Part shown: piece by piece, positions 604 to 50,622 of the stretch
Position numbering within the stretch: position 1 is the stretch's first letter
Layout of the letters: the number at the start of each line of letters is the position of its first letter
DNA from: a virus
Strand: one strand, 5' to 3'
Virus record (IMG/VR): IMGVR_UViG_3300039066_000010
Length of the DNA: 64,000 bases
The notes under the pieces: generated by a model
What the model saw: only the letters and a program-made list of their open reading frames with translations
Database searches by the model: none
Told to the model about the DNA's origin: nothing
Translations under genes and position numbers: made by a program

Positions 604-610
604 ATGTTTG

Positions 611-995: not shown

Positions 996-1082
996 ATTAA
1001 ATAAACAAAGAATAGTACAGGTGTAATGAGTCTGGTAACTGTGACCTATCTCTGTTAGTCTGAGTTCATACTTGTTTATTTG

Positions 1083-1156: not shown

Positions 1157-1267
1157 ATGTGGTTAAGCAGCCTCGTCTTAACCTGTCGTCTTCTGGTTTA
1201 AAGGTTTTCATTCTGTTACCAGAACGCTCCGTGACGCTTATACCTTGAAACGTGAAAAGGCTTATCG

Positions 1268-1343
1268 TGGAGATGGTGAGATTCGAACTCACATCAGTCA
1301 GGTTGCAAACCTATCTCGCTACGCCTGAGAACATGCACCCCCA
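1268..1343 (-). pseudogene. tRNA-like remnant (canonical T-arm GTGAG-TTCGAAT-CTCAC but no matching 5' acceptor or anticodon arm)
   Basis: T-arm present at 1275-1291 (minus); expected 5' acceptor GGAGATG absent; putative anticodon region forms AGGTT-TGC-AACCT hairpin only. Confidence 0.3.
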
Positions 1344-1344
1344 A

Positions 1345-1379
1345 TAAAAAAGCCTCCAAGTTAATACAAGGAGGCTTTT
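1345..1379. terminator. Bidirectional intrinsic terminator-like hairpin (A-run, GCCTCC/GGAGGC stem, T-run)
   Basis: aaaaaaGCCTCCaagttaatacaaGGAGGCtttt seen directly. Confidence 0.4.
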
Positions 1380-1560
1380 GATATAATGATTGTTATCTAA
1401 ATAACTACATACCGATTCCTCCGGATGGTTTACCCCCGTCTTTAATATCCGCTATCGTAACAATTCTTTTCATCTGTGTTTTAATTTGGAGCAAAGATAA
1501 TGAAAAATATAATACCTTACAAATTTTCAGAGAAGAAAAACTTTAATTATTTTTATTTTG

Positions 1561-1633
1561 TCTCTCCGGATGGACTCGAACCACCAATCTTTCGGGTCGT
1601 ATCCGAGGGCTTTATCCATTCAGCTACGGAGAG
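1561..1633 (-). tRNA. tRNA-Arg (ACG)
   Basis: Acceptor CTCTCCG/CGGAGAG, anticodon loop ATACGAC (ACG), T-arm GGTGG-TTCGAGT-CCATC. Confidence 0.65.
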
Positions 1634-1637
1634 TTAG

Positions 1638-1720
1638 TACCGAGAGTGGGATTTGAACCCACAAAACCCCTGTTTCTAAGACAGGACACTCTACCAGCTT
1701 CGTTTTTACGTCACCTCGGC
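1638..1720 (-). tRNA. Atypical 83-nt tRNA-like gene with Leu-type anticodon loop CTTAGAA (UAG); ~9 extra nt in 5'/D region, short variable region
   Basis: T-arm GTGGG-TTCAAAT-CCCAC, anticodon stem CCTGT/ACAGG; acceptor pairing only found with GCCGAGG 83 nt upstream; not a canonical type II Leu. Confidence 0.3.
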
Positions 1721-1725
1721 TTTTG

Positions 1726-1795
1726 GGTGTTGCGGAGACTCGAACTCCATCAACTGAGTCACAATCAGTCTGCTTAACCATTAGCATAACAACAC
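1726..1795 (-). tRNA. tRNA-His (GUG)
   Basis: Acceptor GTGTTGT/GCAACAC, D-arm TGCT/AGCA, anticodon stem ACTGA/TCAGT loop TTGTGAC, T-loop TTCGAGT. Confidence 0.55.
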
Positions 1796-1797
1796 AG

Positions 1798-1869
1798 TTG
1801 GGATATAGAGACTCGAACTCCAACGAGATGGCTCAAAACCACCGATGCTAACCATTACATCATATCCCA
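1798..1869 (-). tRNA. tRNA-Gln (UUG)
   Basis: Acceptor TGGGATA/TATCCCA, D-arm ATGT/AATGGTTA/GCAT, anticodon stem GGTGG/CCATC loop TTTTGAG. Confidence 0.7.
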
Positions 1870-1927
1870 TTTTAAACATATAAGTCTTCTTTTTTATAAT
1901 CTTTTATATTCACAATAAAAATTTTAG

Positions 1928-2002
1928 TACTGCCTACGAGATTCGAACTCGCATTATCCACGTTGAAAGTGTGGTGTCCTATTCCAATTAGACGAAAGCA
2001 GC
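1928..2002 (-). tRNA. tRNA-Glu (UUC)
   Basis: D-arm GTCT/GGAC, anticodon loop CTTTCAA, T-arm GCGAG-TTCGAAT-CTCGT; acceptor with two G-U pairs. Confidence 0.6.
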
Positions 2003-2012
2003 TTTTAATTAG

Positions 2013-2082
2013 TTGGGGATGTAGGATTCGAACCTCGCCTCGCACGTCCAAGGTGCGGATGCTAACCATTACAACACATCCC
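2013..2082 (-). tRNA. tRNA-Pro (UGG)
   Basis: Acceptor GGGGATG/CATCCCC, anticodon stem CGCAC/GTGCG loop CTTGGAC, T-loop TTCGAAT. Confidence 0.7.
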
Positions 2083-2273
2083 CAAAATAAAAAAGACCCC
2101 ATATTACTATGAGGTCTAAAAATGAAATATAAATACGTTACAAACTTTAAGTTTGATTAGTATGTACACACTTAGCCTCAAAAACCATTTCCGGTTCTTG
2201 TTGTAAACGTTCGATATGTAGTACTAATCTTTTCATGGGTACAAAGTTATAAAATTTTTTAATACACTCCTAA

Positions 2274-7789: not shown

Positions 7790-8888
7790 TCATTTGTTAT
7801 CGTAACGGTTTTTTATCCATTACTTCTTATAATTTATTATCTTATAAGTTCGGCATACATTTTCATCTGAAATTCAGATGTCGAACACTCGTGGGGAGAT
7901 TATTGATTCCATAACTCTCACTCCCTATGCTCTACGATACTAACTGGTCTCATTAGTTATCTCGGTATTGAATTAAAAAAATTTAGCTTTTTTTCTAGAT
8001 AGGTAATAATTAGAGTCTTTATATAGATAGTCAAATATTTTTTGTCTTGATTCATAACCTAGATTTATCATCAACCTGTAATATTCCATTTTATTACAGT
8101 CTGTTCTTAATCTACTAGTTGTTCCCAATTCGTTAAATATACTTTCTATTTCTTGCATAAACGGTTTACTTGTAGAAACAAATTTAATTTCTGATTTAGT
8201 CACACATCCGTCTCCATCTAAGAAACCCCTTATGAAATCTCTTATTAAATGCGAAGGTATTTTGTCTAAAATTGTAAATTGTAAGTCTTGTGTTTTATTA
8301 GGTGTGACTCCTAATCTTAGTAAATCGTCTGCTATTTGCTGAGATGAAAACTTAAAAATAATAGTATTTTTACGTGTTATCGAATCCGTCGATTTATTAA
8401 TTGTTTTTAAAACAAATTCTGGAATTATAGAATCTCTAATCAACTCTATTACTTCCAAGTCATCTATATTATTACAAAAACTTATTCTTTGTTGTCTATT
8501 TCCTTTTTTACAGGAAATGTTACCGTCTGCTACTAAAAACCCTAATATATAACTCTTCAGTTCGGAGTTTATGTTTTCAAAGAAATCATGATTAATATAA
8601 TATGTGAAATTTTTTCTTATTTCTACTTTGAAAAAATTCGTAATATCTGATAATCTTTTTTCTGGAATATTTAACTCTTCACTGATTTTTCTTAAGTTAC
8701 ACCCTTTATTCGCTAATTCTTTTATTTTGTCAATTGTATCGGGTTGTAAGTATTTCTTAAATTTCATATCTCTAATTTTATTCAAAGATAATTAAAAAAT
8801 CCACACGTTCCATTTTTTTAATTGACTCAAATATCTTCTACCGATATTGCTCGATTTATTACCTATTTGTCACCAAATAGGAGGACAC
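7790..8888 (-). mobile_element. Group I-like intron 1 in polB (between YxGG and motif A) carrying LAGLIDADG homing endonuclease ORF; boundaries approximate
   Basis: Exon 1 ends FEYGGFTFDLGTGG (YxGG), exon 2 resumes (IKEG)VYKSDEEYIIVDADVASLYPS; spacing to motif A matches PolB only if ~1.1 kb removed; ORF-free 7769-7972 segment homologous to intron 2 3' segment (gatgtcgRacRctcgtg, actcactc, cattagt). Confidence 0.45.
7973..8785 (-). CDS. LAGLIDADG homing endonuclease (double-motif)
   Basis: LGFLVADGNIS and RGFLDGDGCV motifs ~100 aa apart; TTG start. Confidence 0.8.
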   Translation of the reverse strand: MNKIRDMKFKKYLQPDTIDKIKELANKGCNLRKISEELNIPEKRLSDITNFFKVEIRKNFTYYINHDFFENINSELKSYILGFLVADGNISCKKGNRQQRISFCNNIDDLEVIELIRDSIIPEFVLKTINKSTDSITRKNTIIFKFSSQQIADDLLRLGVTPNKTQDLQFTILDKIPSHLIRDFIRGFLDGDGCVTKSEIKFVSTSKPFMQEIESIFNELGTTSRLRTDCNKMEYYRLMINLGYESRQKIFDYLYKDSNYYLSRKKAKFF

Positions 8889-9788: not shown

Positions 9789-11351
9789 TTAATAACTTGC
9801 TATAACACAATCAGTAGTTAATATTGTTCCGGCTACAGATGAAGCACTCTCTAAAGCAACTCTTGTTACTTTCTTAGGGTCAATAATACCCTTTTCATAC
9901 ATGTTAACCAAACTCCTAGATACCACATCATATCCAATATCCATATTATCATTGTTCTCTACTAAATAAAGTGCTACTTCACCATTCTCTCCACCATTCT
10001 CTACAATTGTAATAAGTGGTGAATTTAAAGCTTTCCTAACGATTTGTATCCCTAATCTTTCATCGAAGTTATCACTATCATCAGTGATGGCTACAGCAGC
10101 TCTGATTAAAGCAGCTCCACCCCCAATAACAACACCTTCTGAAACAGCTGCTTTAACTGCAGCAACAGCGTCATCAACCCTGTCTTTCTTCTCTTTCATT
10201 TCGATGTCTGTAAAAGCCCCAACTTTAATAACAGCAATACCACCGGTTAATCGAGCAATACGTTCTTTAGCGTATTTGTCCTTCTTACTAAGTTCCTCTA
10301 AACCAGTGATATATGTTTTCAAATCTTCCTCGTCAACATCACCTTCGATAATCATTGTCTGAAGTGAATCTGAAACTACTTTCTCAGCATACCCTAAATC
10401 TTGAATCAATACTGTTTCTAATGACCCTCCAGCCTTAGCTGAAATTACATTTGCTCCAGTTGCAACAGCGATGTCACTAAGTGTCTCTCTGTTTAATTCC
10501 CCGAAGTTAGGAGTTTTGATAGCATTTACTTTTAAAAACCCCCTGACTTTATTAGCGGCTAAAGTATGTAGAACTTCAGGCTCGTAATCATTAGCGATGA
10601 TTAAAATAGCTCTACCTTGTTGACCAATTTCTGTCAATATAGGTGAAAGCTCTCTAAATGAAACAATTTTATCATCGTATAATAAGATGTAAGGTTTCTC
10701 TAATATCGCCTCTTTAGTTGACTCAGACGTGATGAAGTGATGTAAAGCGTAACCTCTTTCGATTTTAACACCTTCTACAATCTCTGAATAAGTCTCTTGA
10801 GTTTCTGATGTCTCAACTGTAACCATTCCTTTTTCCCCAACTGTAGAGAAAGCTGTAGAAACTAATTCTCCTATCACTTCATCACCATTGGCTGAAATTG
10901 TTGCCACTTGTTTTAACAATCCACTCTTAATACTCACTTCTTTAGACATAATGTCCAATTGCTCTACGACCTGTGCTACGGCTTTATCAATCCCACGTTT
11001 TAAATCGATAGGATTTGCTCCAGCAGTAACATACTTATGTCCTTCACTAACCATGGCTTGAGCTAAAACTGTAGCGGTTGTTGTTCCATCACCAGCATCT
11101 TTAGCAGCTTTAATTGAGGCTTCCCTCACCATATCAACTCCTAATTGCTCAATGATATCGACAGTGTCAACGTTTTCAGCAACTGTAACCCCATCCTTAG
11201 TGGCATGAGCTTTCCCATCTTTACCTCGAATCACTACGAATCGTCCTTTAGCACCTAAAGTGGTTTTAACAGCGTTACATAAAAAATCTACCCCGTTCTT
11301 TAAGGACTCTCTGGCTTTATCTTTAAAAGCTATTTCTTTTTGACTACTCAT
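9789..11351 (-). CDS. groEL: GroEL-like chaperonin (Cpn60) without C-terminal GGM tail
   Basis: AKDAGDGTTTATVLAQAMV and overall GroEL-length 520 aa with equatorial/apical motif pattern. Confidence 0.9.
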   Translation of the reverse strand: MSSQKEIAFKDKARESLKNGVDFLCNAVKTTLGAKGRFVVIRGKDGKAHATKDGVTVAENVDTVDIIEQLGVDMVREASIKAAKDAGDGTTTATVLAQAMVSEGHKYVTAGANPIDLKRGIDKAVAQVVEQLDIMSKEVSIKSGLLKQVATISANGDEVIGELVSTAFSTVGEKGMVTVETSETQETYSEIVEGVKIERGYALHHFITSESTKEAILEKPYILLYDDKIVSFRELSPILTEIGQQGRAILIIANDYEPEVLHTLAANKVRGFLKVNAIKTPNFGELNRETLSDIAVATGANVISAKAGGSLETVLIQDLGYAEKVVSDSLQTMIIEGDVDEEDLKTYITGLEELSKKDKYAKERIARLTGGIAVIKVGAFTDIEMKEKKDRVDDAVAAVKAAVSEGVVIGGGAALIRAAVAITDDSDNFDERLGIQIVRKALNSPLITIVENGGENGEVALYLVENNDNMDIGYDVVSRSLVNMYEKGIIDPKKVTRVALESASSVAGTILTTDCVIASY

Positions 11352-19159: not shown

Positions 19160-19396
19160 TTACCCTTCGATTAATTTTTTAAAGTTTGTTGTGATTTTAG
19201 AGTTTTTCTCAGAGATTTCACGTAATTCTTTTTGTTCGATTTCACGTTCAAGAATTTCGTTTGCCAACTGATTGTTTCTCTTATCTACTTCTTGTTGCAC
19301 TTTGTCCAAAGCGTTTAAAGTTTTGTTGAAAGCATCTAAAATAGTAGATGTTCTTTTTGACAGCGTCGTGGCTGTCTTTTTAAGCGGGTTTTGCAT
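19160..19396 (-). CDS. Hypothetical coiled-coil protein
   Basis: ORF, heptad-like E/K/L pattern. Confidence 0.35.
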   Translation of the reverse strand: MQNPLKKTATTLSKRTSTILDAFNKTLNALDKVQQEVDKRNNQLANEILEREIEQKELREISEKNSKITTNFKKLIEG

Positions 19397-20948
19397 AATT
19401 ATTAATATTAGTTGATACTCTATTTTTGATTTGTTCTAATTTCTCAGTGTTATGAAAAATACCATCTTGGTAGATGACCCTTAACCATCCTATTTCAGAA
19501 CTTCTTCTGCTAACTTGGTCTATCAATTTGTAAGTTCCGTCTTCATCGTTCCCAACACATAATAAACCTTTTGCTGATTTTTTAGTTCCGGAATCAGTGA
19601 TTGGGTCTTTAAAGATTGGTGTGTCAACCCCTTTAATAGTCACGTTTGTTGCTTTCATAGCAAATCCGAAACTGTCTCTGGTGTTAAACTGATAAGTGTA
19701 AGAGCCAATTCCTAAAACAACGTTTGTTGCAGCAAATCCTTTTACCTCTAATCTTTCAAGAATATCCTGAGCAATTGTGATAGTGATACTATCCCCGTAA
19801 ATTACACCAATATGAGGGTCAAGAACTTTATATCCTTCATCAGATGTTGTTCCACCAAACACTTCGTAAAGTAATTCTACTACACCTTTAATAACAGTTT
19901 CTGGATATTCGATATCTCCTTCTAACATTAACCATTTTCCATCTTCATCTTGATAACAGTCTCCTTTGAACCCACAAATAATATCTGCAGGATTACCAGA
20001 GTCAGGTCTTATAACAACCTTCCCATCTCTAGCCATGATTTCATCTTTCAATCTTGGTAAGATATTAGTACAAACATGCCATAAATCCCATGTATCACTA
20101 ACGATTGATACAACACCTGTAGGATAAGCTTTCAAAATTCTCCTGAATGTTTCAATTTCATCCTCAGCACCACCGGCACACATCACTGAATGTTCAGATG
20201 CTGGAACACCCATAGCAATTACACCTTCTTGATGGTAATATTTTCTACCACCTTTGATTGCTGAAATACTGTCACTACCTGTAAAACTTAACAAGTGACC
20301 CAACCCAGATGTTATTGTTGTGAAAGGGTCTAAACCTCTAGCTGAGAAATCGTGCCCCATAAACGGTACAAACCCTATGTTTTTAGAGTCTGTCTTCTTA
20401 ACAAAGAATTCAAATAACTTTCTGTATTCGAAGGCGATGGTAGCGGATGTCATCGGTTTCCACAACAATTGAGACAGTAAAGTTTCAAGGTAATTAGGCA
20501 ACCAATAGAAATCTTTATTAGTGTTTTCAATAGTCAACACTGGGACACCCATCGGTACTAAATCACCTTCTGGTAAAGACTTTACAATAATAGGTAAATA
20601 ACCTAAATCATGTAATGCTTCAAAGTGTGACACATCGTAAGCAGTTCCTAAGTAATCACTGAATTCTTGTTCAAGTTCAGCTAAAACATCTGCTTTTCTT
20701 CTACTGAAAAAAGACCTTTTAAACATATCATGGATATAAATTACAGCCATTTGTTGTCCGAAGGAAACGATTGAATCAATAGATTTCCCATCTATACCTT
20801 TTGGAGCATGTTTGTTACTTCTTGGTGTGAAGTTGGAGTAAACATTCTCTGTACCTTCCGGATACATTTTGTGATGACTCAGTTTATAACCGTCTGTTAA
20901 AAATAATGGATTCATATAAATATTTGATTTAATTTCTACCTTTTTCAT
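19380..20948 (-). CDS. nadV: Nicotinamide phosphoribosyltransferase (NAMPT)
   Basis: N-terminal LTDGYKLSHHKMYPEGTENVYSNFTPR matches NAMPT signature; ~520 aa. Confidence 0.85.
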   Translation of the reverse strand: MKKVEIKSNIYMNPLFLTDGYKLSHHKMYPEGTENVYSNFTPRSNKHAPKGIDGKSIDSIVSFGQQMAVIYIHDMFKRSFFSRRKADVLAELEQEFSDYLGTAYDVSHFEALHDLGYLPIIVKSLPEGDLVPMGVPVLTIENTNKDFYWLPNYLETLLSQLLWKPMTSATIAFEYRKLFEFFVKKTDSKNIGFVPFMGHDFSARGLDPFTTITSGLGHLLSFTGSDSISAIKGGRKYYHQEGVIAMGVPASEHSVMCAGGAEDEIETFRRILKAYPTGVVSIVSDTWDLWHVCTNILPRLKDEIMARDGKVVIRPDSGNPADIICGFKGDCYQDEDGKWLMLEGDIEYPETVIKGVVELLYEVFGGTTSDEGYKVLDPHIGVIYGDSITITIAQDILERLEVKGFAATNVVLGIGSYTYQFNTRDSFGFAMKATNVTIKGVDTPIFKDPITDSGTKKSAKGLLCVGNDEDGTYKLIDQVSRRSSEIGWLRVIYQDGIFHNTEKLEQIKNRVSTNINNYAKPA

Positions 20949-21714
20949 CTGGATAAAGTGTCATAACTTTATCTGATTGAAATACTTCCCCTGTTTCGAT
21001 GTTTTGCATACTTAGTTTTCCGTTCCAACCAGCTCCTGTGTCTACATTTGTAATGTTTACAGCAGTCATAGGATAATCTTTACCCCAGTTTGTTGTTTGA
21101 GTGTGACCTATGTAAACATGAGATACTTCCTCTGCTATTTTATACTTCATCTTAGATGATTCAGCACTTAAAGCTCCCATCCATAAGTCTCTATCCCACC
21201 AGTAAATATCGTCTTTGTACTGTTCGTTTAAAGGGTAGTGTCTGTTGAAACCACCGTGGATAAACAATCTTTTCTTATCATCCTTGTAACTTCTTACCTG
21301 ATTCTTAAAGAATTGTAAGTGTGTTTGAGGGATGTCAGAGTTCAATAAGTTAGTGGTGTAATAATTCTCTATCCTCCCGTTGTTTCCATACGGATGAGAG
21401 TGATATTTAAAATGTTCACCTAAAACATTCACCCCATAACTTTTAGCTGTAGCTAAACCACCTTGCTCCCATCTTACTGGGTGAATCCCAAACATTAAAA
21501 ACTCTAGAAACCAATGGTCATGATTACCATGAATATCGATTCTATTCTTAACCTTTAGTAATTCTTCGACACATTCGTAAGACTGACCCCATCCATCAAC
21601 AATGTCTCCGATGGTGATTAACTTATCATTTTCATAGTCGAACCCAGAACGTTCAAGAACTTGTTTTAATGCCTTAAATGCACCGTGGATGTCTCCAATT
21701 ACGAAGGTTCTCAT
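20929..21714 (-). CDS. Calcineurin-like metallophosphoesterase (PPP-family Ser/Thr phosphatase-like)
   Basis: GDIHG, GDIVDGWG, GNHD motifs in order. Confidence 0.75.
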   Translation of the reverse strand: MRTFVIGDIHGAFKALKQVLERSGFDYENDKLITIGDIVDGWGQSYECVEELLKVKNRIDIHGNHDHWFLEFLMFGIHPVRWEQGGLATAKSYGVNVLGEHFKYHSHPYGNNGRIENYYTTNLLNSDIPQTHLQFFKNQVRSYKDDKKRLFIHGGFNRHYPLNEQYKDDIYWWDRDLWMGALSAESSKMKYKIAEEVSHVYIGHTQTTNWGKDYPMTAVNITNVDTGAGWNGKLSMQNIETGEVFQSDKVMTLYPDEKGRN

Positions 21715-22586
21715 ATGTAATCGATTTCAATAGTTAAACCCTTGCTTCTGTATGATTTACAAGAGTTTGTTGTGAATATCTTAGTGAAATACTCACTTAA
21801 TTTTAAGAACCCTTTAGAGAAAATCCCATGAGTTACAGCTAAATATAAAGCTGCTGGTTTTTTAGCTTTTAATTCATCAGCCAACCCTAAAAATGTAGCA
21901 CCTCCATCACAAATATCATCGATGATTAATACTAATCGACCATCTAAATCAACATCGTTTGGAATTGAGAATTTATCTAACCTCCCAGTTGTTGTGTCAC
22001 GCTGTTTTGTACAAAGTAAAACATCGTTTGGTAAGTTTAAATTCTTAACCACTGTTAACAATTTTTTATGTGCTCCGGCATCTGGAGCTACAAGCACTAC
22101 TTCATTAGGTTTATCAAAACCATCTAAAATGTTTTCAATAAATGTTTCGTTATTGACGTTAGTAGCGTTTTTGATTAATGCCTCAGTAACTGGTGAATGA
22201 CTATCGTAATAAATAACTTCTTCGAAGTTCATATTATTGATAGTATCAGCTACAACTCTCAATCCGAAAGCCTCACCTTTATTCATTGTTCTATCTTGTC
22301 TTGCTGCTGGTAAGTAAGGGATTAATAAAATCAATTTTTTAAATCTCTCTTGACGTAAAGCATCTACAGCCATTTGTAAGAATCCAATATCCACCCATGA
22401 GTTATACCTCATAGTTATGATAGTGAAATCCTCTGCATCTGGGTGAGGTACTTTATCAAGTAAAAGTTTAACATGTGGTTCACCTGCATTGAAGGTCATT
22501 TTTTCAAAAGGTATGATTACATCTCCTTCTACCATTTCGGCAGCTAAAGGATTAAATGCATCATCTAAATTCAGGAAGTAGTTCAT
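21711..22586 (-). CDS. prs: Ribose-phosphate pyrophosphokinase (PRPP synthetase) family
   Basis: IPYLPAARQDR and PRPP-binding VLIIDDICDGGAT. Confidence 0.8.
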   Translation of the reverse strand: MNYFLNLDDAFNPLAAEMVEGDVIIPFEKMTFNAGEPHVKLLLDKVPHPDAEDFTIITMRYNSWVDIGFLQMAVDALRQERFKKLILLIPYLPAARQDRTMNKGEAFGLRVVADTINNMNFEEVIYYDSHSPVTEALIKNATNVNNETFIENILDGFDKPNEVVLVAPDAGAHKKLLTVVKNLNLPNDVLLCTKQRDTTTGRLDKFSIPNDVDLDGRLVLIIDDICDGGATFLGLADELKAKKPAALYLAVTHGIFSKGFLKLSEYFTKIFTTNSCKSYRSKGLTIEIDYI

Positions 22587-22604: not shown

Positions 22605-22979
22605 TTATACTCTTTTCATTGTTTTAAGTAGTTCGTTTAAACACTTTAATGATTCAGTGTTTATATAATCTAAGTTACTTATAATGTCTCTCTTTAAGTC
22701 AGCGTTAGGTTTAACGTCTAATAATAGATTGTCATATACTTTTTGAACATACGTGTCACAATCATATAAGTAGTCGAAGTACTCTAACCCATTAATTACT
22801 GTACCATGTGCTTTAAATCCAGCAACATGTGCAATAGCTTCTAAAGACATCCCAGCAGCTCGAAGTAAAGCGTAAAAGATACCTCTTGCTTTAGTGTATC
22901 TTTCTTTTCGTGACTTAGAGAAAAGGTTTGTAATTTTAAACTCTGTCTCTAAAGAACTTCTTAATAATTGTATATTCAT
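22605..22979 (-). CDS. Hypothetical protein
   Basis: ORF only. Confidence 0.4.
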   Translation of the reverse strand: MNIQLLRSSLETEFKITNLFSKSRKERYTKARGIFYALLRAAGMSLEAIAHVAGFKAHGTVINGLEYFDYLYDCDTYVQKVYDNLLLDVKPNADLKRDIISNLDYINTESLKCLNELLKTMKRV

Positions 22980-29258: not shown

Positions 29259-29507
29259 TTACTCTGTTCCATGTTGAAATTGTCCGTTAATGAATAAAGG
29301 TTCGTATTCTCTATGGTCTTGTAACATGTCACCAGTCTCCCAGAATTCTGTATAACTTGCAAGTTTTAACTCGTGACAGATTGCAATTACTGGAGCTTCA
29401 TCACCTTTTAAAGGGTGTTCTACTAACTCGATAACTTGACCTATTGAGTTGGTCATTATGTCGTATATGGTCGGGGAAAGGTCGACTAATTTTTGGTAGT
29501 TTAGCAT
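29259..29507 (-). CDS. Hypothetical protein
   Basis: ORF only. Confidence 0.35.
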   Translation of the reverse strand: MLNYQKLVDLSPTIYDIMTNSIGQVIELVEHPLKGDEAPVIAICHELKLASYTEFWETGDMLQDHREYEPLFINGQFQHGTE

Positions 29508-29528
29508 TATTTTAATTATTAAAATGAA

Positions 29529-29562
29529 TAAAAAAAGGGTTACACTTTTACGTATAACCCTT
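29529..29562 (-). terminator. Intrinsic terminator (AGGGTTA/TAACCCT stem followed by T7 on minus strand)
   Basis: Seen directly after stop of 29573..29950 gene. Confidence 0.45.
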
Positions 29563-29572
29563 GTTAGTTAGT

Positions 29573-29950
29573 TTATTTTACTGGATTGATTAAAGTTGCA
29601 ACATCTACTAATTCAACTTTGCGTAGTAAGTCTTCACTTAAGGCGAATACTACCTTTGCGAATTTTTGTTTACGCTCGATAGTACTGTTTAACTTTAGTT
29701 TTGTACGCTCCAATTTGTCGATTTTAAAGGTATCAACTTTTATCCCGTTTGAACTCATGATAATATCGAACGGTTCATTCATTTTGAATAGTTTGTAAAC
29801 TCCTTGTTTCTGTCTGTCTACTTTGTGGAACAATTCACTGCATACTGTACCGACTAGAGTGTTTAAAGCAACTTTTTTAGTCGTTTGAATTTCGATTGTA
29901 CGTTCAACTACAGTTGAACCGTTAACAAATTTGAAGTTAATTTTTGTCAT
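29573..29950 (-). CDS. Hypothetical protein (first gene of leftward early block)
   Basis: ORF only. Confidence 0.4.
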   Translation of the reverse strand: MTKINFKFVNGSTVVERTIEIQTTKKVALNTLVGTVCSELFHKVDRQKQGVYKLFKMNEPFDIIMSSNGIKVDTFKIDKLERTKLKLNSTIERKQKFAKVVFALSEDLLRKVELVDVATLINPVK

Positions 29951-30563
29951 GATTTTAAAATTTAGATTGATATTTCGATTTATTTTGTGCCCTAGTTGGT
30001 TTGAACCGTAACAACAACTTTTTAGTTTTGTCTAGGGCTGGATGTTCCTTAACTTTTGTATTTTCAAGCCTTTGCAATACCGGACGTTTAAACCGTATGA
30101 CTTTGTTTATTTTGAAATAACGTATTTTTAATACGTTTGTCCGTCGAATAGTTATTTAATAACTATATTTGTTTTTTTGTACGTCATATAATAACACTTA
30201 TCTATTTTGCGGGGTTGAAATTTAACCCGATAAGAATATTCGCCTTATTATTATATACAAGCCTCTCACTTTTCGTGCCTCTTTTCGCTTGTGGCGTGTA
30301 ACCATTATACACACTATTTGTCTAAATTAAGTATCTAAACTTAATAAATAAGTATTTCAATTTGCTAGATTAAAATCTTACACTTTTTACCGTTAGGATG
30401 GTTTCAATATTTCAATGAACGAGTTTACAAAGTTACTTTTAATCTTTATAACGGGCTCGTGCACCCTTGTTAAAAAATATTAAATTGTAAACCAATAATT
30501 TTAAGAACTTGTTGGTAGTTGTTATTAAACTACGTTGCAAAGTACGTTTGTTTTTTTGAGATG

Positions 30564-30982
30564 TGCAAGTTTTTTTTGAATTTTAACAAAATTTTAACAT
30601 TTGGTTGCTATTTTATTGACTTTTAACCATGTAAGCGGACGATATAACCTTTTTTGTTGTCTTTACATGAAGTGGTACAATACTCGGACAAATGGTTTGT
30701 TTAAATTAATCCTTTTATTGTGGATTCATTTTTAAACAAACAGAATTTGTTTTTTGTTGACTTGCTTATTCTCAAAATTTCAATGTACTTAAGTTATGCG
30801 TTTTAATTCTGGTACAAAGTAAGGTTATTATTTTTTATTGTGCAAATGTTTTAATGATTTTAACAAAATTTTAACATTTGCGTTATTGTATAACCTTGTT
30901 TCTTTATTACTAGCGTAAAATTAGTTAATTGCATTTTAATATGCAAGTAAATAAATAATTTTAACATAATTTTAACATATTG
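30564..30982. repeat. Three ~42-bp direct repeats TGCAA(G/A)T...TTTTAACA-N-AATTTTAACAT-N-TTG at 30564-30604, 30841-30880, 30941-30982
   Basis: Seen directly; each unit has internal TTTTAACA duplication 11 bp apart. Confidence 0.6.
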
Positions 30983-31868
30983 AATGTAAAACTACATTGT
31001 ATATAGTCATTACTTATGACACGTAAACAAACAATAAATAAAATTTATAATCAATCATATATCTACTTGTTACAATTCATAAACGAACGTTTAACAAGTG
31101 TTACGCTTTCTCTTACATGACGGTATAACATAACATCATACACACGAACGCCCACAAACAAGGCATAAGAAGACACGAACACACACGGACACAATTCGCA
31201 AGCCTCAAATGTTTTGTGCAAAAATCCTAAAAACGAACCCCACCCCGTTAAAACATTGGCGTTTCCCTTTTTACACACGACCCCTAAAACCCCATATAGA
31301 CCCTATGCTCGTCAGTTGAATCCATTTCAAAGTCATCAAATAGCGTTTAAATCGATTTTAAGGCATCAATTTTTAATTTTTTATCGTCGTGAATATATTG
31401 ATATAGAAGACCACAAAATAATCTCTTAAATCGCCTTATTTTAATTCATCAAACCAAACCCCGTATTTTCAAACATCTTCAAACCATCAACAAAACACTC
31501 CTCACAATCACCCACAACGCCACCAGTCACAGAAACCGGTCAAAATCGATTCAACGCAGATTGAATCTTTCATAGAAATTATAAGCATTCGCTCTTATTT
31601 TTAATCTTAAAAGGCTTTGTATTAAATATTATTTATTACATAACTCTTCTCTGCTTAAACCATCTCTTAAGAACATAGTTCTTCTTAACTATAGATATTT
31701 ATTAAATAATATATTTATAAATAATATATTTATTCAAATATGCACGCACACACGTACATATAACAGTATCAAAATCTAAAACCTACTAAAATGGTTAAAA
31801 ATTTTTCAAAAATCGACCACAACAATCCTCTCTAAACCCCTGTTACACTTCATAAACGTTAAATAATA

Positions 31869-31908
31869 AAATATTTTACATCATTTTACTTGCAGATGTA
31901 AAATATTT
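31869..31908. promoter_or_regulatory. Perfect 14-bp inverted repeat AAATATTTTACATC-N12-GATGTAAAATATTT
   Basis: Seen directly, ~280 bp upstream of serine recombinase gene. Confidence 0.5.
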
Positions 31909-32189
31909 GATATAACTTTGTATAAAATTTAACATCGATATGAAGAGACAAATAAATGTACCAGAAGAACTTTTCCTACAAGTCTATCAATTCCTTGTTT
32001 TATACGGTCTTCTCCACGGAATAGGAGAAACGGATATGTTCAACTCAAAATTACGAGAGATGGAAGAAATATACGAAGAACAAACCGGAGAATCTATTTA
32101 ACATCTATTTTCTCCAAATTTAAACATCAAATCATAGATGTTTTCAATAAATCAAGAATCAGGTGTAAAAAATATTAGTTTCAACAAAA

Positions 32190-32903
32190 ATGAGTGTAAA
32201 ATTTATAGCATATTATCGAGTATCCACAAAAGAACAGGGTAAAAGTGGTTTAGGATTAGACTCTCAAAAAGATTCTATCCAAACTTACATCACCTCAATC
32301 AAGGGTGAATTGATTTCAGAATTTACAGATATTGAAACCGGTAAAAATGACAATAGAGAAAATCTATGGGTTGCAGTAAACGAAGCTAAAAACCAAGGTG
32401 CAACTTTAATTGTTAAAAAATTCGACAGATTAAGTCGTGGAGGTTTAGAAGTAATGTCTCGATTGGAGAAATTAAAAGTTCCATTTATCGAGTGTGATTC
32501 TCCACACGATAACACATTGTTGAAAGAGTTAAAATTTTCAATCGCCAGAGATGAGGTTCGTAAAACATCTGAACGAACACAATCAGCATTGTCTATGATT
32601 AATAAAAAAATAAAATCCGGAGAACCTCATATATCAAAATCTGGGAAAATGGTTACAAAACTTGGTAATCCTGAGAATTTAACCAATGAAGCTAGAGAAA
32701 AAGGCAGGGAAAAGCGTATATTAAACGCTAGGAACGAAGAAGAAAACAAAAGGGCTTATTCATTTGTCAAATTGATGAAAGAATCAGCCGGATACAGTCA
32801 CACAAAAGCAGCTAAAAAACTGAACGAATCTGGATTTTTAACCCCTAAAGGAGGGATGTTTTCAACGATTCAAGTTATAAGATTAATTAAATTATTTGAA
32901 TAA
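32190..32903 (+). CDS. Small serine recombinase (resolvase/invertase family) with C-terminal HTH
   Basis: YYRVSTKEQ catalytic Ser motif, GLGLDSQ, KFDRLSR. Confidence 0.8.
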   Translation: MSVKFIAYYRVSTKEQGKSGLGLDSQKDSIQTYITSIKGELISEFTDIETGKNDNRENLWVAVNEAKNQGATLIVKKFDRLSRGGLEVMSRLEKLKVPFIECDSPHDNTLLKELKFSIARDEVRKTSERTQSALSMINKKIKSGEPHISKSGKMVTKLGNPENLTNEAREKGREKRILNARNEEENKRAYSFVKLMKESAGYSHTKAAKKLNESGFLTPKGGMFSTIQVIRLIKLFE

Positions 32904-36750: not shown

Positions 36751-36829
36751 AGGAGTATTGAGCAATTGGTGGCTCAGCGGTCTGTAAAATCGTGGTGAAA
36801 ACATGTGGGTTCGAGTCCCTCTACTCCTA
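36751..36829 (+). tRNA. tRNA-Tyr (GUA), long variable arm
   Basis: Acceptor AGGAGTA/TACTCCT, D-arm GAGC/GCTC, anticodon loop CTGTAAA, 11-nt variable arm, T-loop TTCGAGT. Confidence 0.7.
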
Positions 36830-36834
36830 CAACA

Positions 36835-36923
36835 TAGAAAGTGAAGCAGTCCATTGGTGGGCGACTGGTCTTGAAAATCAGGTCTCGTTAAATCGGGCGG
36901 GGTTCGACTCCTCCTCTTTCTAC
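36835..36923 (+). tRNA. tRNA-Ser (UGA), type II
   Basis: Acceptor TAGAAAG/CTTTCTA, anticodon loop CTTGAAA, long variable arm CTCG-TTAAAT-CGGG, T-loop TTCGACT; close to E. coli Ser(UGA) layout. Confidence 0.65.
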
Positions 36924-36927
36924 AATT

Positions 36928-37014
36928 AGAAAAGTGTCAGAGTGGCTGATTGAGCATCCCTGCTAAGGATGTGGGGTATAAACACTCCCGTGGGTTCGAA
37001 TCCCACCTTTTCTG
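36928..37014 (+). tRNA. tRNA-Ser (GCU), type II
   Basis: Acceptor AGAAAAG/CTTTTCT, anticodon stem CATCC/GGATG loop CTGCTAA, long variable arm, T-arm GTGGG-TTCGAAT-CCCAC. Confidence 0.65.
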
Positions 37015-37019
37015 CAAAA

Positions 37020-37093
37020 TGCTTTGTCGTAATAATGGTTTAATACGTCCGACTGTTAATCGGGTTATAAGGGTTCAAATCCCTTCAAAGCAG
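37020..37093 (+). tRNA. tRNA-Asn (GUU)
   Basis: Acceptor TGCTTTG/CAAAGCA, anticodon stem TCCGA/TCGGG loop CTGTTAA, T-arm AAGGG-TTCAAAT-CCCTT. Confidence 0.6.
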
Positions 37094-37098
37094 CAAAT

Positions 37099-37169
37099 AC
37101 GTCAGTAGTGTAACGGTAACACGATGGTCTCCAAAACCATTAATAAAAGTTCGAACCTTTTCTGATGTG
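37099..37169 (+). tRNA. tRNA-Trp (CCA)
   Basis: Acceptor ACGTCAG/CTGATGT, D-arm GTGT/ACAC, anticodon stem ATGGT/ACCAT loop CTCCAAA, T-arm AAAAG-TTCGAAC-CTTTT. Confidence 0.7.
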
Positions 37170-37216
37170 CAAACAATAGATTTTATTTATATACCTATAG
37201 ACAAAATCTATTATAT

Positions 37217-37290
37217 GGGGATGAAGCTAACTTTGGTAGAAGCGGTAGTCTGAAAAGCTACAGGAGTTGGTTCAAATCCAACTATCCCCA
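37217..37290 (+). tRNA. tRNA-Phe (GAA)
   Basis: Acceptor GGGGATG/TATCCCC, anticodon stem GTAGT/GCTAC loop CTGAAAA, T-arm GTTGG-TTCAAAT-CCAAC. Confidence 0.7.
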
Positions 37291-37295
37291 CAACT

Positions 37296-37376
37296 GCTCT
37301 TATGTCCGAGAGGTTAGGTGGACGCTTGCAACCCGTCCCACACAGGTTCGAATCCTGTTAAGAGTTCAAAAACATA
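37296..37376 (+). tRNA. tRNA with irregular anticodon arm (possible Cys GCA; GGACG/CGTCC stem would give 9-nt loop CTTGCAACC)
   Basis: Acceptor GCTCTTA/TAAGAGT, T-arm ACAGG-TTCGAAT-CCTGT, Ser-like D region TCCGAGAGGTTAGG. Confidence 0.4.
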
Positions 37377-41760: not shown

Positions 41761-41786
41761 ATTATTATCTTTGCAAAGATAATAAT
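41761..41786. promoter_or_regulatory. 24-bp perfect palindrome TTATTATCTTTGCAAAGATAATAA containing TATCTTTG on both strands (candidate bidirectional promoter/operator)
   Basis: Seen directly; TAnnTTTG on plus ~27 nt before ATG 41800, mirror copy on minus before 41743 gene. Confidence 0.5.
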
Positions 41787-41799
41787 AATATTTGACACG

Positions 41800-46370: not shown

Positions 46371-46930
46371 TGATAACTTTAAACTGCCTAGTAGTAGAAG
46401 TTGAATCAGAATATGAAAATGAAAGAGAGGGTATCGTTAGTAATATTGATTATAACGATACCTTTTTTATAACTAGAAAAGCTACAGTTGTATCAGCCCC
46501 TAAGTTCACGATTTTAAAAAAAGGAGATACAGTTGTGTGTCATCATAATATATTCAGGAAAAAAGGGAGCACATCCGGAACTATTATACATAGTGCTTTT
46601 CATATCGAAGACAACTTATATCATGTACCTCTAGACGAGGTTTTCATGTTTAAAAGAGATGGTGAAGATTGGGTATCACTATCACCGTTTTGTTTTGTTA
46701 CCCCAATAAAAGATGAAAACTTTAATCATTTATCTGAAACAGAAAAACAATTCGAAACACATAAAGGTTTTAAAAAGAATAGAGGGATATTAGCTTATCC
46801 TTGTAAGGAGTTAGAGCAGCATAAAAACAAAGAAGTTATATTCAGCAATGATTCCGAATATGAATTTTTAATAGACGGTGTACTATATTACAAAATGAAA
46901 TTAAATGATATTTTAATATTTATTGAATGA
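46370..46930 (+). CDS. Hypothetical protein
   Basis: ORF only. Confidence 0.4.
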   Translation: MITLNCLVVEVESEYENEREGIVSNIDYNDTFFITRKATVVSAPKFTILKKGDTVVCHHNIFRKKGSTSGTIIHSAFHIEDNLYHVPLDEVFMFKRDGEDWVSLSPFCFVTPIKDENFNHLSETEKQFETHKGFKKNRGILAYPCKELEQHKNKEVIFSNDSEYEFLIDGVLYYKMKLNDILIFIE

Positions 46931-49900
46931 AAGGATTAAGTAGCGATATAGAATCAGCGATTGAAACAATTTTAGAAGGACTTAATTACGAGTTTGACAT
47001 AAATATTTTAGATGATTCTAAAATGAAGGCAACAATGGATTCAAAAGTTGCTTCCTTCAACACAGCAAAAAAACTATTAGATAGATGGGGTAATTCGATG
47101 AATAGTCCCGCACAAGAAAAATTAGAAACATATGTCGAAAGATTGATTATAGCTGGTGAGTCAGCTATTGTCAATTTAAGGACAGCTCTAGGTAAGACCA
47201 TCAACTATGATGGTATGAAAGAGGAAAAGTTCACAGCTGCTGTAAAAGCTAAACCATTAATCTTAGATGCTATCCTAGATTTGGACGTAGGGGTTAATGA
47301 GTTAAGATTACAATTAGATGCTGGGAATGTAAACCTAGGGGAAAAAGAATTTAAAACAGGGTATCCAGAAAAGTTTGCCAACGGTGAATTTTACCCATTG
47401 AAAAAATATCATAAGAATTGGTTAGACAAAGAGAACGATGCTATAATAATCGACCCTCATTGCACACTGGGTGAAATCATAGAGATATCTGGATTAAGAA
47501 TACGCCTACCTAAAGTACCGGAAGACCAAACTAAAATATTATTTTCAGAGTTCCCTAAAGAAGAACAATACTGGAGAAGACAAGAACAACCGAAGGGAAT
47601 CACGCCAGATTCTGTAGAAGCTTTTGACGCATATATCGTTGAAGAATACAGAAGAATTAGAGAAGGTATATGGTTCATGAATAATGGAGTTCCTGTTTAT
47701 TTGACTGGAAATATGTACTTCGCCTTACAATATTGTGAAATGATTGACAACGGTGATTTCATGAATTTCCGTATCGCTCAGTTAGAGATGTTCTATCATT
47801 TAGAAGCTTGTATAGTAGATAAAAGATGTTTAGGTCAAATATTCTTGAAATCTCGTCGTACAGGATTTACATACATCATCTTAGCTATTTTATTAAAATT
47901 AGCAATCACCACTAAAAATGGTAAATTCGGGATGACATCTAAATCTGGGGATGACGTTGTGGAAGCATTTAGTAAATTCTCGTACATGTTCTTAAATTTA
48001 CCATTCTGGTTAAGACCGGTTGTAAAAGGTAAAGAGGATTCTTTAACGTCTTTAGAATTTGGTAAACCATCAAACTTATCTAAAGAGGCTAAAAAGAAAA
48101 GAGATAGTAACACCGGTGATTATTTGAATACAATCATTGACTGGAGACCTACTAAAAATGGTTCTTATGACTCAGTAAAACTTAATGGTTATTTAGGGGA
48201 TGAGTGTTTTGAATTTGGTACTAAAATACGAATGAGTAACACATCTCTTAGAAACATAGAGGATATACAAATAGGAGAATCTGTTTTAACAGGTTCTGGG
48301 AAGTCAGCGATAGTTGTAGATAAAGTAGAAGGTGTAGATGAAATGTATAAAGTCACATCTAAATACGGGGTAGATTTTGTAATAAACTCCGCACATAGAT
48401 TACTAATTGAATTTAAAAACCAAAAGAAAAAAGAACATAACGGAGTTAGAGAATTAACTCCTGAAGAATATTTACAGCTTACAGATTATCAAAAAAGAAC
48501 CACACATTTAATAAAATGTTCAGTTATAAAAAACCCAGAACAAAATCTAGAGATAGACCCATATATCTTTGGATGCTGGTTGGGAGACGGGTACTCTAAA
48601 GATAGTCAATTCATAATTAACCATAAAAAAGACCCTGAAATTTTAGAAGAGGTTTTGAAATATGCAGTAATTAATGATTTTGACACATCAGAAGTAGAAA
48701 GAACAGAGACATATGTAAAAATCAGATTGCTAGATAAATTATCCACAGGTGCTAATCAAAGTACAGGTAGTAAACATAAGTTTATCAAGAGTTTGAAACA
48801 ATTAAACGTATACGGAGATAAAAGAATACCTGAGAAATATTTAAACTCTTCAGAGGAGCAACGTTTAGAGATACTTTCCGGAATAATCGATACAGATGGA
48901 TATGTTAAAAGAGGAACAGCTTATATATCGATGAGTAGATTAGAACTAATGGAGGATATCTATAATTTAGTGAAATCATTGTCTATACCATGTTCTGAAA
49001 TAAAACATAGAATATCTAATTTTGAAACCGATGTTTATTCACTTTCTTTAAATATGAACTCTGATATTAAATGTAGAGTTAGTAGAAAAATACATAAAGA
49101 AAGTAGAAAAAACAGCAGAAGAGAGTCCTTTAATGTTGAATACATAGGGGTTGGTAGTTATTGTGGTATAACATTAGACTCTGAAAACACGGTAGTTCTT
49201 CAAGATTACACAGTGCAGAAAAACTGCGGGAAATGGGAGCGTCCAATGGATTACATTACCCACTTAGGTCAGATTAGACCAACAATGATGCCGTCTGGTA
49301 AAGTTGTAGGTAAAGCCTTTATCGGTTCTACCATGGGGTCAATGGTTAAAGGGGGTCAACAATTCAAAGAATTGATAAATGGTTCTTACGTTCACCTTAG
49401 AAATGAAATCACAGGTAAAACACCTACAGGTCTTTATTTCCACTTCTTACCGGCTCAAAATAACATGGAGCAGTTTACAGATAAATATGGGACATGTTGG
49501 ACAACAGCTCCTCCAAAAGGAACTTTAAATGTAGAGGGTGATGAAATAAAAATAGGGTCTTTAGATTATTTAATAGCTACAGAAGAGCAATTAAAAACAA
49601 TGGATGATAAAGCTTTGAATGAGCAATATCGTACATACCCTAGAACTGTAGAACATGCAATGCGTGATGAAGCAACAGAAACTGTTTTCAACATCACTAA
49701 GATATACCAACAGTTAGAGAACAATGAGAAATTAGGTGAGAACACTTTATTCTCTCAAGGTAATTTTGATTGGGAGAATGGTATAAAAGACGGGAAGGTT
49801 GAATGGAATCCTAACCCTAAAGGTAGGTTCAAATTATCTTGGATTCCTAGTGAAGCAGATAATACATTATCTTTGCGTAATAATGTTAGAGATGTAAATG

Positions 49901-50622
49901 GTAAATTCTACCCTTTAAATGATAATGTTGGGGCTTTAGGTTGTGACCCGTTCACATTAAAATCTACACATGGTAAAGGTTCTAAAGGAGCAATACATGG
50001 TAAAACATTACATTTCCCAGAAGGAAACGCACCATCAAATACATTCTTTTTAGAATATGTTGCTCGTCCATCAGATGAGACAATTTTCTTTGAAGACGTT
50101 ATCATGGCTTGTCGTTTTTACGGGATGCCGGTTTTAGTAGAGTCAAACAGAATTGACTTACTTAGACACATGAGGAATAGAGGTTATAGAGGTTTCTCTA
50201 TAAACCGTTTAGATAGACCTTTCAAATCATTAAATGAGAATGAAAGAGAATACGGTGGACAAGTGATGTCTGGTAAAGATATTATCGATTCACATATGAA
50301 CGCTATCGGGTCATGGATTACAGATTACGTTGGGGAAAGTACAAAAGAACAAATCAGACCTGTTGGTGAGATTGGGAACTTCGCTTTCCAAGAAACATTA
50401 AAAGACTGGTTAGGATTTAACCCAGATAACAGAACAGACTATGATGCAACCATTTCAAGTGGTTTAGCGATTATGGCTTGTCAAAAAGACAAATATAGAG
50501 GTAAAAAAGTTAAACGAGTTGAAAACAAAGCGGTTAACTTCTTCCCTAAGTACAGCAATAACGGAGACTTCGGCTCTAGAATCATAACACAAAAAACAGA
50601 TAAATCAGATGAATTGGAATAA
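46927..50622 (+). CDS. Terminase large subunit containing an intein
   Basis: Deviant P-loop KSRRTGFT, Walker B LNGYLGDE; long C-terminal nuclease-type region; order terminase-portal-scaffold-capsid. Confidence 0.6.
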   Translation: MKGLSSDIESAIETILEGLNYEFDINILDDSKMKATMDSKVASFNTAKKLLDRWGNSMNSPAQEKLETYVERLIIAGESAIVNLRTALGKTINYDGMKEEKFTAAVKAKPLILDAILDLDVGVNELRLQLDAGNVNLGEKEFKTGYPEKFANGEFYPLKKYHKNWLDKENDAIIIDPHCTLGEIIEISGLRIRLPKVPEDQTKILFSEFPKEEQYWRRQEQPKGITPDSVEAFDAYIVEEYRRIREGIWFMNNGVPVYLTGNMYFALQYCEMIDNGDFMNFRIAQLEMFYHLEACIVDKRCLGQIFLKSRRTGFTYIILAILLKLAITTKNGKFGMTSKSGDDVVEAFSKFSYMFLNLPFWLRPVVKGKEDSLTSLEFGKPSNLSKEAKKKRDSNTGDYLNTIIDWRPTKNGSYDSVKLNGYLGDECFEFGTKIRMSNTSLRNIEDIQIGESVLTGSGKSAIVVDKVEGVDEMYKVTSKYGVDFVINSAHRLLIEFKNQKKKEHNGVRELTPEEYLQLTDYQKRTTHLIKCSVIKNPEQNLEIDPYIFGCWLGDGYSKDSQFIINHKKDPEILEEVLKYAVINDFDTSEVERTETYVKIRLLDKLSTGANQSTGSKHKFIKSLKQLNVYGDKRIPEKYLNSSEEQRLEILSGIIDTDGYVKRGTAYISMSRLELMEDIYNLVKSLSIPCSEIKHRISNFETDVYSLSLNMNSDIKCRVSRKIHKESRKNSRRESFNVEYIGVGSYCGITLDSENTVVLQDYTVQKNCGKWERPMDYITHLGQIRPTMMPSGKVVGKAFIGSTMGSMVKGGQQFKELINGSYVHLRNEITGKTPTGLYFHFLPAQNNMEQFTDKYGTCWTTAPPKGTLNVEGDEIKIGSLDYLIATEEQLKTMDDKALNEQYRTYPRTVEHAMRDEATETVFNITKIYQQLENNEKLGENTLFSQGNFDWENGIKDGKVEWNPNPKGRFKLSWIPSEADNTLSLRNNVRDVNGKFYPLNDNVGALGCDPFTLKSTHGKGSKGAIHGKTLHFPEGNAPSNTFFLEYVARPSDETIFFEDVIMACRFYGMPVLVESNRIDLLRHMRNRGYRGFSINRLDRPFKSLNENEREYGGQVMSGKDIIDSHMNAIGSWITDYVGESTKEQIRPVGEIGNFAFQETLKDWLGFNPDNRTDYDATISSGLAIMACQKDKYRGKKVKRVENKAVNFFPKYSNNGDFGSRIITQKTDKSDELE
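48205..49224 (+). mobile_element. Intein (340 aa) with LAGLIDADG homing endonuclease domain, inserted after Walker B glutamate of terminase
   Basis: Starts C(FEFGTKIRM) after LGDE, contains GCWLGDGYS and GIIDTDGYV, ends ...VVLQDYTVQKN followed by C+1. Confidence 0.55.

Follow-up and report, generated by a model that had tools for sequence, protein, structure and literature searches.

Positions 29951-32189 of IMG/VR virus record IMGVR_UViG_3300039066_000010, from which we analyzed a stretch of 64,000 nucleotides (nt; hereafter the window), lie between leftward and rightward genes and contain three direct repeats, R1-R3. We read these repeats, with a probability of about 70%, as three tandem leftward promoters of the host type, that is, of the type served by the Bacteroidota sigma-A factor, and we read the region that holds them, with equal confidence, as the divergent transcription-control region of a ~73-kb Flavobacteriaceae podophage. 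The region is probably a fairly ordinary phage control region; what is new here is a UP-like element found in many phages and hosts, a hairpin with covariation, and a conserved block of C runs. The longest contig with the window's recombinase measures 73,387 nt, giving a phage genome of ~73.4 kb, 64 kb of which make up the window. Left of 29950, the genes run leftward and encode small unknown proteins and then replication proteins; right of 31940, they run rightward, beginning with a 53-amino-acid (aa) open reading frame (ORF) and genes for a serine recombinase and a PAPS-reductase-like protein, after which come tRNAs and finally structural genes. Leftward firing into the early genes is the most likely activity of the repeats because they share one register, because the 21-mer within them is generic, and because promoter arrays are conserved at this place in related phages. 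Promoter activity, early timing, and a UP-like action of the upstream tandem are what we infer from the sequence; the observations themselves concern how it is built, how far it is conserved, and how it is associated statistically with promoters and genes at other places.

The first-pass annotation of the window had described triplicated 42-bp repeats, each with an internal duplication. Three copies are indeed present and the internal 11-nt duplication is real, but 42 bp is too short, the unit being 76-79 nt (Table 1) and the copies 71-75% identical. There are three exact matches to ATTTTAACAnAATTTTAACAT (30580, 30857, and 30958), all on the plus strand, and none elsewhere in the 64 kb, where 0.17 would be expected. 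Read on the minus strand, each module consists of the tandem CAAATGTTAAAATTnTGTTAAAAT (TGTTAAAAT-TTnTGTTAAAAT), 13 nt, TTGCA(C/T), 17-18 nt, and a TAnnTTTG-like box, which reads TACTTTG in R1, TTACTTTG in R2, and TAATTTTA in R3. The primary sigma factor of the Bacteroidota uses promoters made up of a TTG and, 17-22 nt further on, a TAnnTTTG box at -12 to -5 (PMC7366714, PMC9723704). TTGCA(C/T) lies at the -33 position, 20-21 nt from the -7 box, in all three window modules. The -7 boxes of R2 and R3 match TAnnTTTG at five of six positions, and TACTTTGC in R1 and TACTTTGT in R2 fit the TAnnTTGY variant of the -7 box described for F. psychrophilum (PMC9723704). All three modules face the leftward gene block on the same strand, the first ORF of which lies 580 nt downstream of P_L1.

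The same arrangement (tandem, 13 nt, TTGCA, 17-18 nt, TA..TTTG) recurs in seven of seven modules, namely R1-R3 and modules a-d of L069, the sole relative of this phage found in IMG/VR, which is syntenic, carries a recombinase 57% identical, and has a 3.1-kb gene-poor junction. The four L069 modules have perfect TACATTTG boxes, 20 nt from their -33 elements, and a fifth promoter stands further right. Protein searches recovered further relatives, two of which (L414 and L416) cover the entire junction. The junctions of L069, L414, and L416 each contain four leftward exact -7 boxes, every one with a -33 TTG, and those of L069 and L416 also contain one rightward exact box with a -33 TTG, the rightward promoter of L414 being seen only by reading the sequence. 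All told, four related phages each have an array of three to five leftward promoters and, on the other strand, one that faces right. In L414, the tandem leftward promoters are kept while the sequence upstream of them (the TTTTAACA tandem of the module) is replaced, which points to selection on a promoter array and not on a site that a replication initiator would bind. The unrelated siphovirus Larrie, a Tenacibaculum phage, has a 1.1-kb ORF-free stretch with three to four of the same modules. In an unannotated part of that genome (L406, ON950054; 5481-6618), two near-identical promoter modules are each followed by GTACTGACACCC and no ORF, and this common sequence suggests repeated small RNAs.

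Promoter sequences of this type are also common in the rest of the phage. The window holds 21 matches to TTG-N17-22-TAnnTTTG, against 9.7 +/- 2.8 in shuffles, and TA(A/T)CTTTG boxes precede many of the phage's own genes by 15-30 nt on both strands. A sigma-70 scan, with 17 matches for 15.5 expected, is uninformative for this host. The best protein relatives are Cellulophaga and Flavobacterium podophages, at merely 35-40% identity, and homologues of the recombinase come from Nonlabens, Olleya, Maribacter, and Gramella; on the strength of these relationships, the host is almost certainly a member of the marine Flavobacteriaceae. As an observation in its own right, two divergent -7 boxes placed back to back at 41766-41788, between oppositely oriented ORFs, form the perfect palindrome TATCTTTGCAAAGATA.

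The upstream tandem of the modules is shared well beyond this phage group. Among the matches listed, more than 119 IMG/VR contigs and more than 120 bacterial genome contigs contain the exact 21-mer, the bacterial ones being mostly from Flavobacteriaceae, Chryseobacterium, and Sphingobacterium. A -7 box with at least five of six positions matching stands at one of two fixed offsets, +27-33 (same strand) or +31-37 (opposite strand), in 67 of the 97 distinct phage contexts drawn from these matches, over a background of ~10% for each 7-nt window. In 48 of 78 cases, an ORF of 40 aa or more begins within 100 nt, typically 19-46 nt past the box, and the same tandem-to-box offsets are found in host genomes. 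With respect to the predicted start, the tandem occupies ~-43 to -63 or ~-47 to -67, depending on its orientation. The tandem of the window, at -47 to -69, has the position of a UP-type element, an A/T tract at ~-40 to -60 upstream of the -33. The alternation of A-tract, T-tract, and A-tract resembles the E. coli UP consensus. The tandem is most likely a promoter-upstream element that acts like a UP element. For a strong promoter of a Bacteroides phage, UP elements have been reported (bioRxiv 10.1101/2025.03.18.644028), and no description of this (TTTTAACA)x2 sequence was found in the literature that we searched. Published start-site studies covered only -50 to +1 (PMC7366714), so an element at -47 to -69 would have escaped them. 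At several Flavobacteriaceae loci (L314, L327, L343, L365, L366, L370, L385, and L394), which belong to several genera, the TTTTAACA tandem and a -7 box stand before an ORF for a conserved peptide of 43-48 aa that is predicted to be secreted (MKTKKY.LAIAIFGG..FTAQA...).

Phased direct repeats in gene-free DNA can also be read as replication-origin iterons, which is how the first-pass annotation had seen them, and under that reading the three TTTTAACA repeats would be bound by a phage initiator. The three direct copies with their internal 11-nt periodicity agree with this, as do the minimum of cumulative GC skew at 31-32 kb, a check that the annotation had proposed, and the least stable 60-mer of the window (31681-31740), 700 nt from the repeats. 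However, the skew minimum falls where the coding strand switches and is therefore not independent evidence of an origin. The TGCAA of the repeats is the reverse complement of the -33 element, and more than 200 unrelated contigs of phages and bacteria carry the 21-mer, mostly in single copy and at a constant spacing from -7 boxes and genes, so it is not specific to this replicon; L414 keeps its promoter array even though the tandem is replaced. DnaA boxes are at chance level in the window (26 for 22.6 expected), with a single weak match in the region, and no neighboring gene encodes an initiator: replication domains are absent from the flanking genes, and the primase-helicase is 16 kb away. We thus give the iteron reading very little credence. 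An origin elsewhere in the region is conceivable, and the G-poor spacer discussed below holds the least stable 60-mer.

Several features weigh against the three repeats being leftward promoters. The -7 boxes of the window itself are imperfect (TACTTTGC, TTACTTTG, and TAATTTTA), and there is no ORF right behind the promoters, only a 580-nt leader whose sequence is not conserved in L069. The plus strand of R1 reads as a weak promoter (TTG-17-AACATTTG) ahead of the conserved hairpin, which would allow for bidirectional modules, and the leader contains three exact plus-strand matches to TTG-N17-21-TAnnTTTG (30023, 30132, and 30543) for which the model has no use. Finally, the tandem is found in both orientations relative to promoters, with a shift of 2-4 nt, and this makes a dimeric host factor as possible a partner as the polymerase alpha subunit's C-terminal domain (alpha-CTD). 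Plus-strand promoters 30 nt downstream of R1-R3, a layout seen in many other phages, are absent here. The predicted leader RNA has a folding energy of -112.9 kcal/mol (z = -3.2). In favor of the promoter reading, the leftward leader of L069, 887 nt long, includes a tRNA-His-like gene detected by ARAGORN (8056-8152, plus strand), unusually long at 97 nt and just before the first early gene, and this tRNA-like gene needs a promoter upstream; the rest of this leader folds better than shuffles (z = -3.5). Within R1, the T8 homopolymer at 30570-30577 is T9 in contig L123 from another sample, and two contigs begin exactly there, so that a strain-level indel probably breaks assemblies at this point.

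Between the first two promoters lies a hairpin whose fold is common to the window, L069, and L414. Its 34 pairs, with 90% of cells paired, include 11 with compensatory changes, a result reached by none of 500 shuffles and compared with 0-2 in slid controls. Conserved G-U pairs make folding much better on the plus strand (-17.8 vs -9.1 kcal/mol), and an nnCATTTG box, conserved as well, lies 5' of the structure. A covariance-model search for further copies returned just the three training sequences, and the Rfam 15 covariance models gave no match, either at gathering thresholds or up to E = 5, at 29400-32400 or in the homologous region of L069. The hairpin may be a small plus-strand RNA, may terminate antisense transcripts that run rightward, or may form in the DNA. 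A rightward RNA of ~100 nt driven by the modules, or by R1 at least, and acting as an antisense regulator or a terminator on transcripts that cross the leftward array, is a tentative possibility: the covariation in three phages, the preference for the plus strand, the U-rich tail, and the conserved box ahead of the hairpin are all consistent with it. Against it, the alignment consists of three sequences only, the -7-like box is imperfect, L414 is without a -33, and the compensatory changes would equally maintain a minus-strand hairpin or a DNA cruciform.

Rightward transcription would be served by a single promoter, P_R, which reads TTGCAG-20-TAACTTTG (31889-31920) and stands 19 nt ahead of the 53-aa ORF. 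Its consensus, TTGnAnATGTAAAA..TTTG..TAwCTTTG, is kept in L069, L407, L408, L409, L410, and L413. A 17-nt inverted repeat (31866-31882 / 31895-31911) overlaps the -33 of P_R, and in L069 the -7 region is duplicated in inverted form instead; both look like operators, as far as can be judged by inference. Divergent early promoters with operators, which the first-pass annotation had put forward as a second role for the region, are therefore what the sequence best fits, with three leftward modules, one rightward consensus promoter, and an inverted repeat over its -33. An exact leftward box, TTG-22-TAAATTTG, is also present further right, at 32122-32115.

The DNA between the leftward array and P_R is depleted of G. 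Such a patch had been noted at 31085-31560; it is real and the most extreme in the window but wider, extending over the spacer listed in Table 1. Among all 476-nt windows of the 64 kb, the one starting at 31410, with only 30 G, has the lowest GC skew (-0.556). ACACG occurs six times on one strand of the spacer, for ~0.6 expected from local composition, and the left arm of a 36-bp dyad recurs directly at 31841-31858 with 17 of 18 positions identical. The C-run block, which has four runs of at least four C inside 56 nt, could be aligned in six phages, and diverged copies in L414 and L416 bring the number to eight. No conserved RNA structure was found in the block on either strand, so it probably acts as DNA. 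To its left lies an alternating purine-pyrimidine (CG/TG)n tract of up to ~90 nt (L409, 300-390; L069, 6100-5960; window, 31140-31195), which on the reference strand is G/T-rich in L409 and L069 and C/A-rich in the window and L407. Inverted homology between the spacers of the window and L069 was not significant.

An origin in this spacer, possibly primed by transcription, is unlikely. Under this proposal, a G-rich leftward transcript, made on the C-rich template across the AT-rich least stable segment and then the G-run block, would form a persistent R-loop. The spacer does combine the most extreme GC skew of the window with its least stable 60-mer; the C-run block is conserved and lacks RNA structure, and the ACACG repeats are confined to one strand. 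L069, L410, L413, and L414 have a leftward TATCTTTG box beside a C5-6-N3-C5-6 motif where the spacer ends on the right, and the window has its exact leftward promoter match at 32122-32115. All of this is circumstantial, however, and no initiator sites were recognized. G depletion is much weaker in the relatives, parts of the L069 and L409 spacers have the opposite strand bias, and AT-rich intergenic DNA is often the least stable in any case.

Slightly more probable, and still rather unlikely, is that the spacer is a physical genome end or a direct terminal repeat (~31012 to 31840-31870) with packaging signals, in which case the layout would match the left end of T7: terminal repeat, short repeats, three host promoters, and early genes. 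The 16.6-kb contig L407 opens with 22 nt of Illumina TruSeq adapter fused to sequence that aligns at ~31012, three other relatives have long contigs that begin 290-420 nt to the left of the C-run block, and three contigs of this phage (L125, L126, and L405) start at 31820-31840. The relative's contig L408 begins 3 nt before its copy of half-site B, and an 18-nt direct repeat is present at 31068 and 31841. Yet L121-L124, L414, and L416 read straight through both points; tandem repeats, palindromes, and strain indels such as that at 30570 also break assemblies; and an adapter tip at a contig end can be a matter of chance. The TruSeq universal adapter at positions 1-22 of L407, a public Logan contig, could mark a physical DNA end or be untrimmed contamination.

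The dyad and half-site B might instead be targets of the adjacent serine recombinase, with inversion, excision, or resolution of the intervening 0.77 kb as the outcome. The hix and gix sites have arms around a central dinucleotide, and the 17-nt arms of the dyad around AA have a similar geometry. The recombinase matches Resolvase and DNA-invertase models, the repeat is kept in L408 and, in two copies, in L407, site B is a point where contigs break, and the ACACG/CGTGT tract differs in strand orientation among relatives. But there is only one full dyad, site B being a half-site, the alternative junction was seen in no contig, and the C-run block has the same orientation in eight of eight phages. 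We regard recombination at these sites as improbable. A broader proposal would make the spacer a conserved replication or packaging module of a new Flavobacteriaceae podophage lineage, in which a leftward transcript over the least stable DNA and the G-run block (GGGGTCG ... GGGGTGGG) primes R-loop replication or marks a terminus, UP-bearing promoters and the hairpin RNA gate early transcription, and (TTTTAACA)x2 is an undescribed UP-type element common to the Bacteroidota. As a whole, we hold this to be doubtful.

Table 1. Features of the control region and the genes to its right (window coordinates; -33 and -7 boxes of the minus strand are listed from 5' to 3')
Feature	Positions	Strand	Details
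R1 = P_L1	30525-30603	-	Tandem 30580-30600; -33 TTGCAC 30568-30563; -7 TACTTTGC 30543-30536; predicted start ~30531
R2 = P_L2	30802-30880	-	Tandem 30857-30877; -33 TTGCAC 30845-30840; -7 TTACTTTG 30822-30815; predicted start ~30810
R3 = P_L3	~30903-30980	-	Tandem 30958-30978; -33 TTGCAT 30946-30941; -7 TAATTTTA 30923-30916; predicted start ~30911
Predicted leftward 5' leader	29951-30531	-	P_L1 start ~30531 to ATG 29950; holds palindromes 30119-30137 and 30148-30166
Extended stem-loop, ~100 nt	30598-30696	+	Between P_L1 and P_L2; U-rich tail after; -7-like box AACATTTG before
G-depleted C/A-rich spacer	30980-31888		Between leftward array and rightward promoter; G 9%, C 22%
Small palindrome GTCATtacttATGAC	31007-31021		Adapter-capped start of related contig L407 maps ~31012
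Imperfect dyad, 36 bp	31068-31104		17-nt arms, 13/17 complementary, central AA; kept in both L407 and L409
ACACGAAC-type short direct repeats	31142-31193	+	
C-run block, ~90 bp	31218-31318		CCCACCCC ... TTTCC-TTTT ... CGACCCC ... ATATAgACCCT
AT-rich tandem 15-mers	31681-31740		Least stable 60-bp duplex of the 64-kb window
Half-site B TGTTACACTTCATAAACGTT	31841-31860		Independent contigs of this phage start at 31820-31840
P_R	31866-31925	+	-33 TTGCAG 31889; -7 TAACTTTG 31913-31920; predicted start ~31925
53-aa ORF	31940-32101	+	First gene of the rightward block; conserved in relatives
Serine recombinase	32190-32903	+	Matches Resolvase and DNA-invertase models

The description of the region as ORF-free was borne out: apart from the real-looking, conserved 53-aa ORF, it has only short chance ORFs, recoding of TAG, TGA, or TAA exposes no hidden ORF in it, and its longest stop-free run of 86 codons compares with 76 +/- 14 in shuffles. 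Four palindromes had been named, all of which are present at coordinates slightly different from those given (30119-30137, 30148-30166, 30234-30241, and 31548-31567). Perfect hairpins (arms of at least 7, loops of at most 8) number 13 in the region, ~2.7-fold the 4.8 +/- 2.8 of shuffles, only 2 of 200 of which reach 13; the mean over the whole window is 4.1 per 2.2 kb. Pfam gave zero matches for the 53-aa ORF and the adjacent small proteins. By DNA, no close relative of the window was found among GenBank phages, and the phages with the best protein match, Cellulophaga Pachyviridae at 35-40% identity, are without such a region. IMG/VR searches with single flanking proteins gave no match, a search with the pattern AAGCGGACGATAT found only L069 and unrelated prophages, and a metagenome scan with the recombinase alignment returned 80 loci, none with the motifs.

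The window also encodes structural proteins (a crAss-type muzzle protein, portal, major capsid protein, and terminase) and a replication and auxiliary set with primase-helicase, DNA polymerase, GroEL, NAMPT, and 17 tRNAs. An intein that has Hint and LAGLIDADG homing-endonuclease domains splits the large terminase subunit (46927-50622, 1231 aa). The tRNA genes form two arrays, one per transcription block (610-2084, minus strand, 11 genes; 36751-37367, plus strand, six genes), and consensus -7 boxes at 698 and 1492 precede the left one. The auxiliary genes at 9789-11351, 19380-20948, 21711-22586, and 22605-22979 encode a GroEL-type chaperonin, a NAMPT-like nicotinamide phosphoribosyltransferase, a PRPP-synthetase-like phosphoribosyltransferase, and a DnaA helix-turn-helix protein, the last being a 124-aa protein that consists solely of the DnaA C-terminal helix-turn-helix.

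If the three repeats are leftward promoters, they would together produce transcripts with a structured leader of ~580 nt that lead into the small early genes and the replication genes. The phased pair of A/T tracts upstream (TGTTAAAAT twice, 11 nt apart) would act in a UP-like manner through alpha-CTD or another host factor to make the promoters strong, and the single promoter at 31889-31920, with an inverted repeat across it, would transcribe the 53-aa ORF and the serine recombinase and then the tRNAs and structural genes. The promoter architecture of Bacteroidota and their phages is poorly charted, and a portable, defined upstream element common to Flavobacteriia phages and hosts could aid both the annotation of early regions and the design of expression tools for marine Flavobacteria. 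The conserved hairpin and the C-run block offer concrete targets for locating the origin or terminus in this phage group. More generally, phased A/T repeats in gene-free phage DNA should be checked against the promoter grammar of the host before they are called iterons.

Among known systems, the Bacteroidota primary-sigma promoters (-33 TTTG / -7 TAnnTTTG) have the same elements and spacing as the modules described here. The strong Bacteroides phage promoter P_BfP1E6, with its UP elements, is likewise A/T-rich upstream of the -33, belongs to a phage, and is read by host polymerase; unlike in promoters of that type, the putative upstream element here is a defined sequence, (TTTTAACA)x2, with 11-nt phasing, which occurs in either orientation and is common to Flavobacteriia phages and their hosts. 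Iteron-type origins such as lambda ori and those of plasmids also have helically phased direct repeats near AT-rich DNA, but the repeats here are not replicon-specific, have promoter elements in register, and are without an adjacent initiator gene. A possible promoter upstream of an unwinding-prone segment and conserved G-runs recalls the transcription-primed origins of ColE1 (RNA II), T4 (oriF/oriG), and mitochondria (CSBII), a likeness that here is pure analogy drawn from sequence. Phage T7 carries three tandem early promoters for host polymerase, A1, A2, and A3, at its left genome end. Like these, the three modules would be tandem promoters for host polymerase that face early genes from a gene-free stretch beside short repeats; they differ in that the leader is much longer, the promoters are of another type, a conserved hairpin lies inside the array, and proximity to a genome end is only a candidate property. 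By analogy, the A1-A2-A3 array appears to be the closest functional counterpart of the leftward promoters of this phage.

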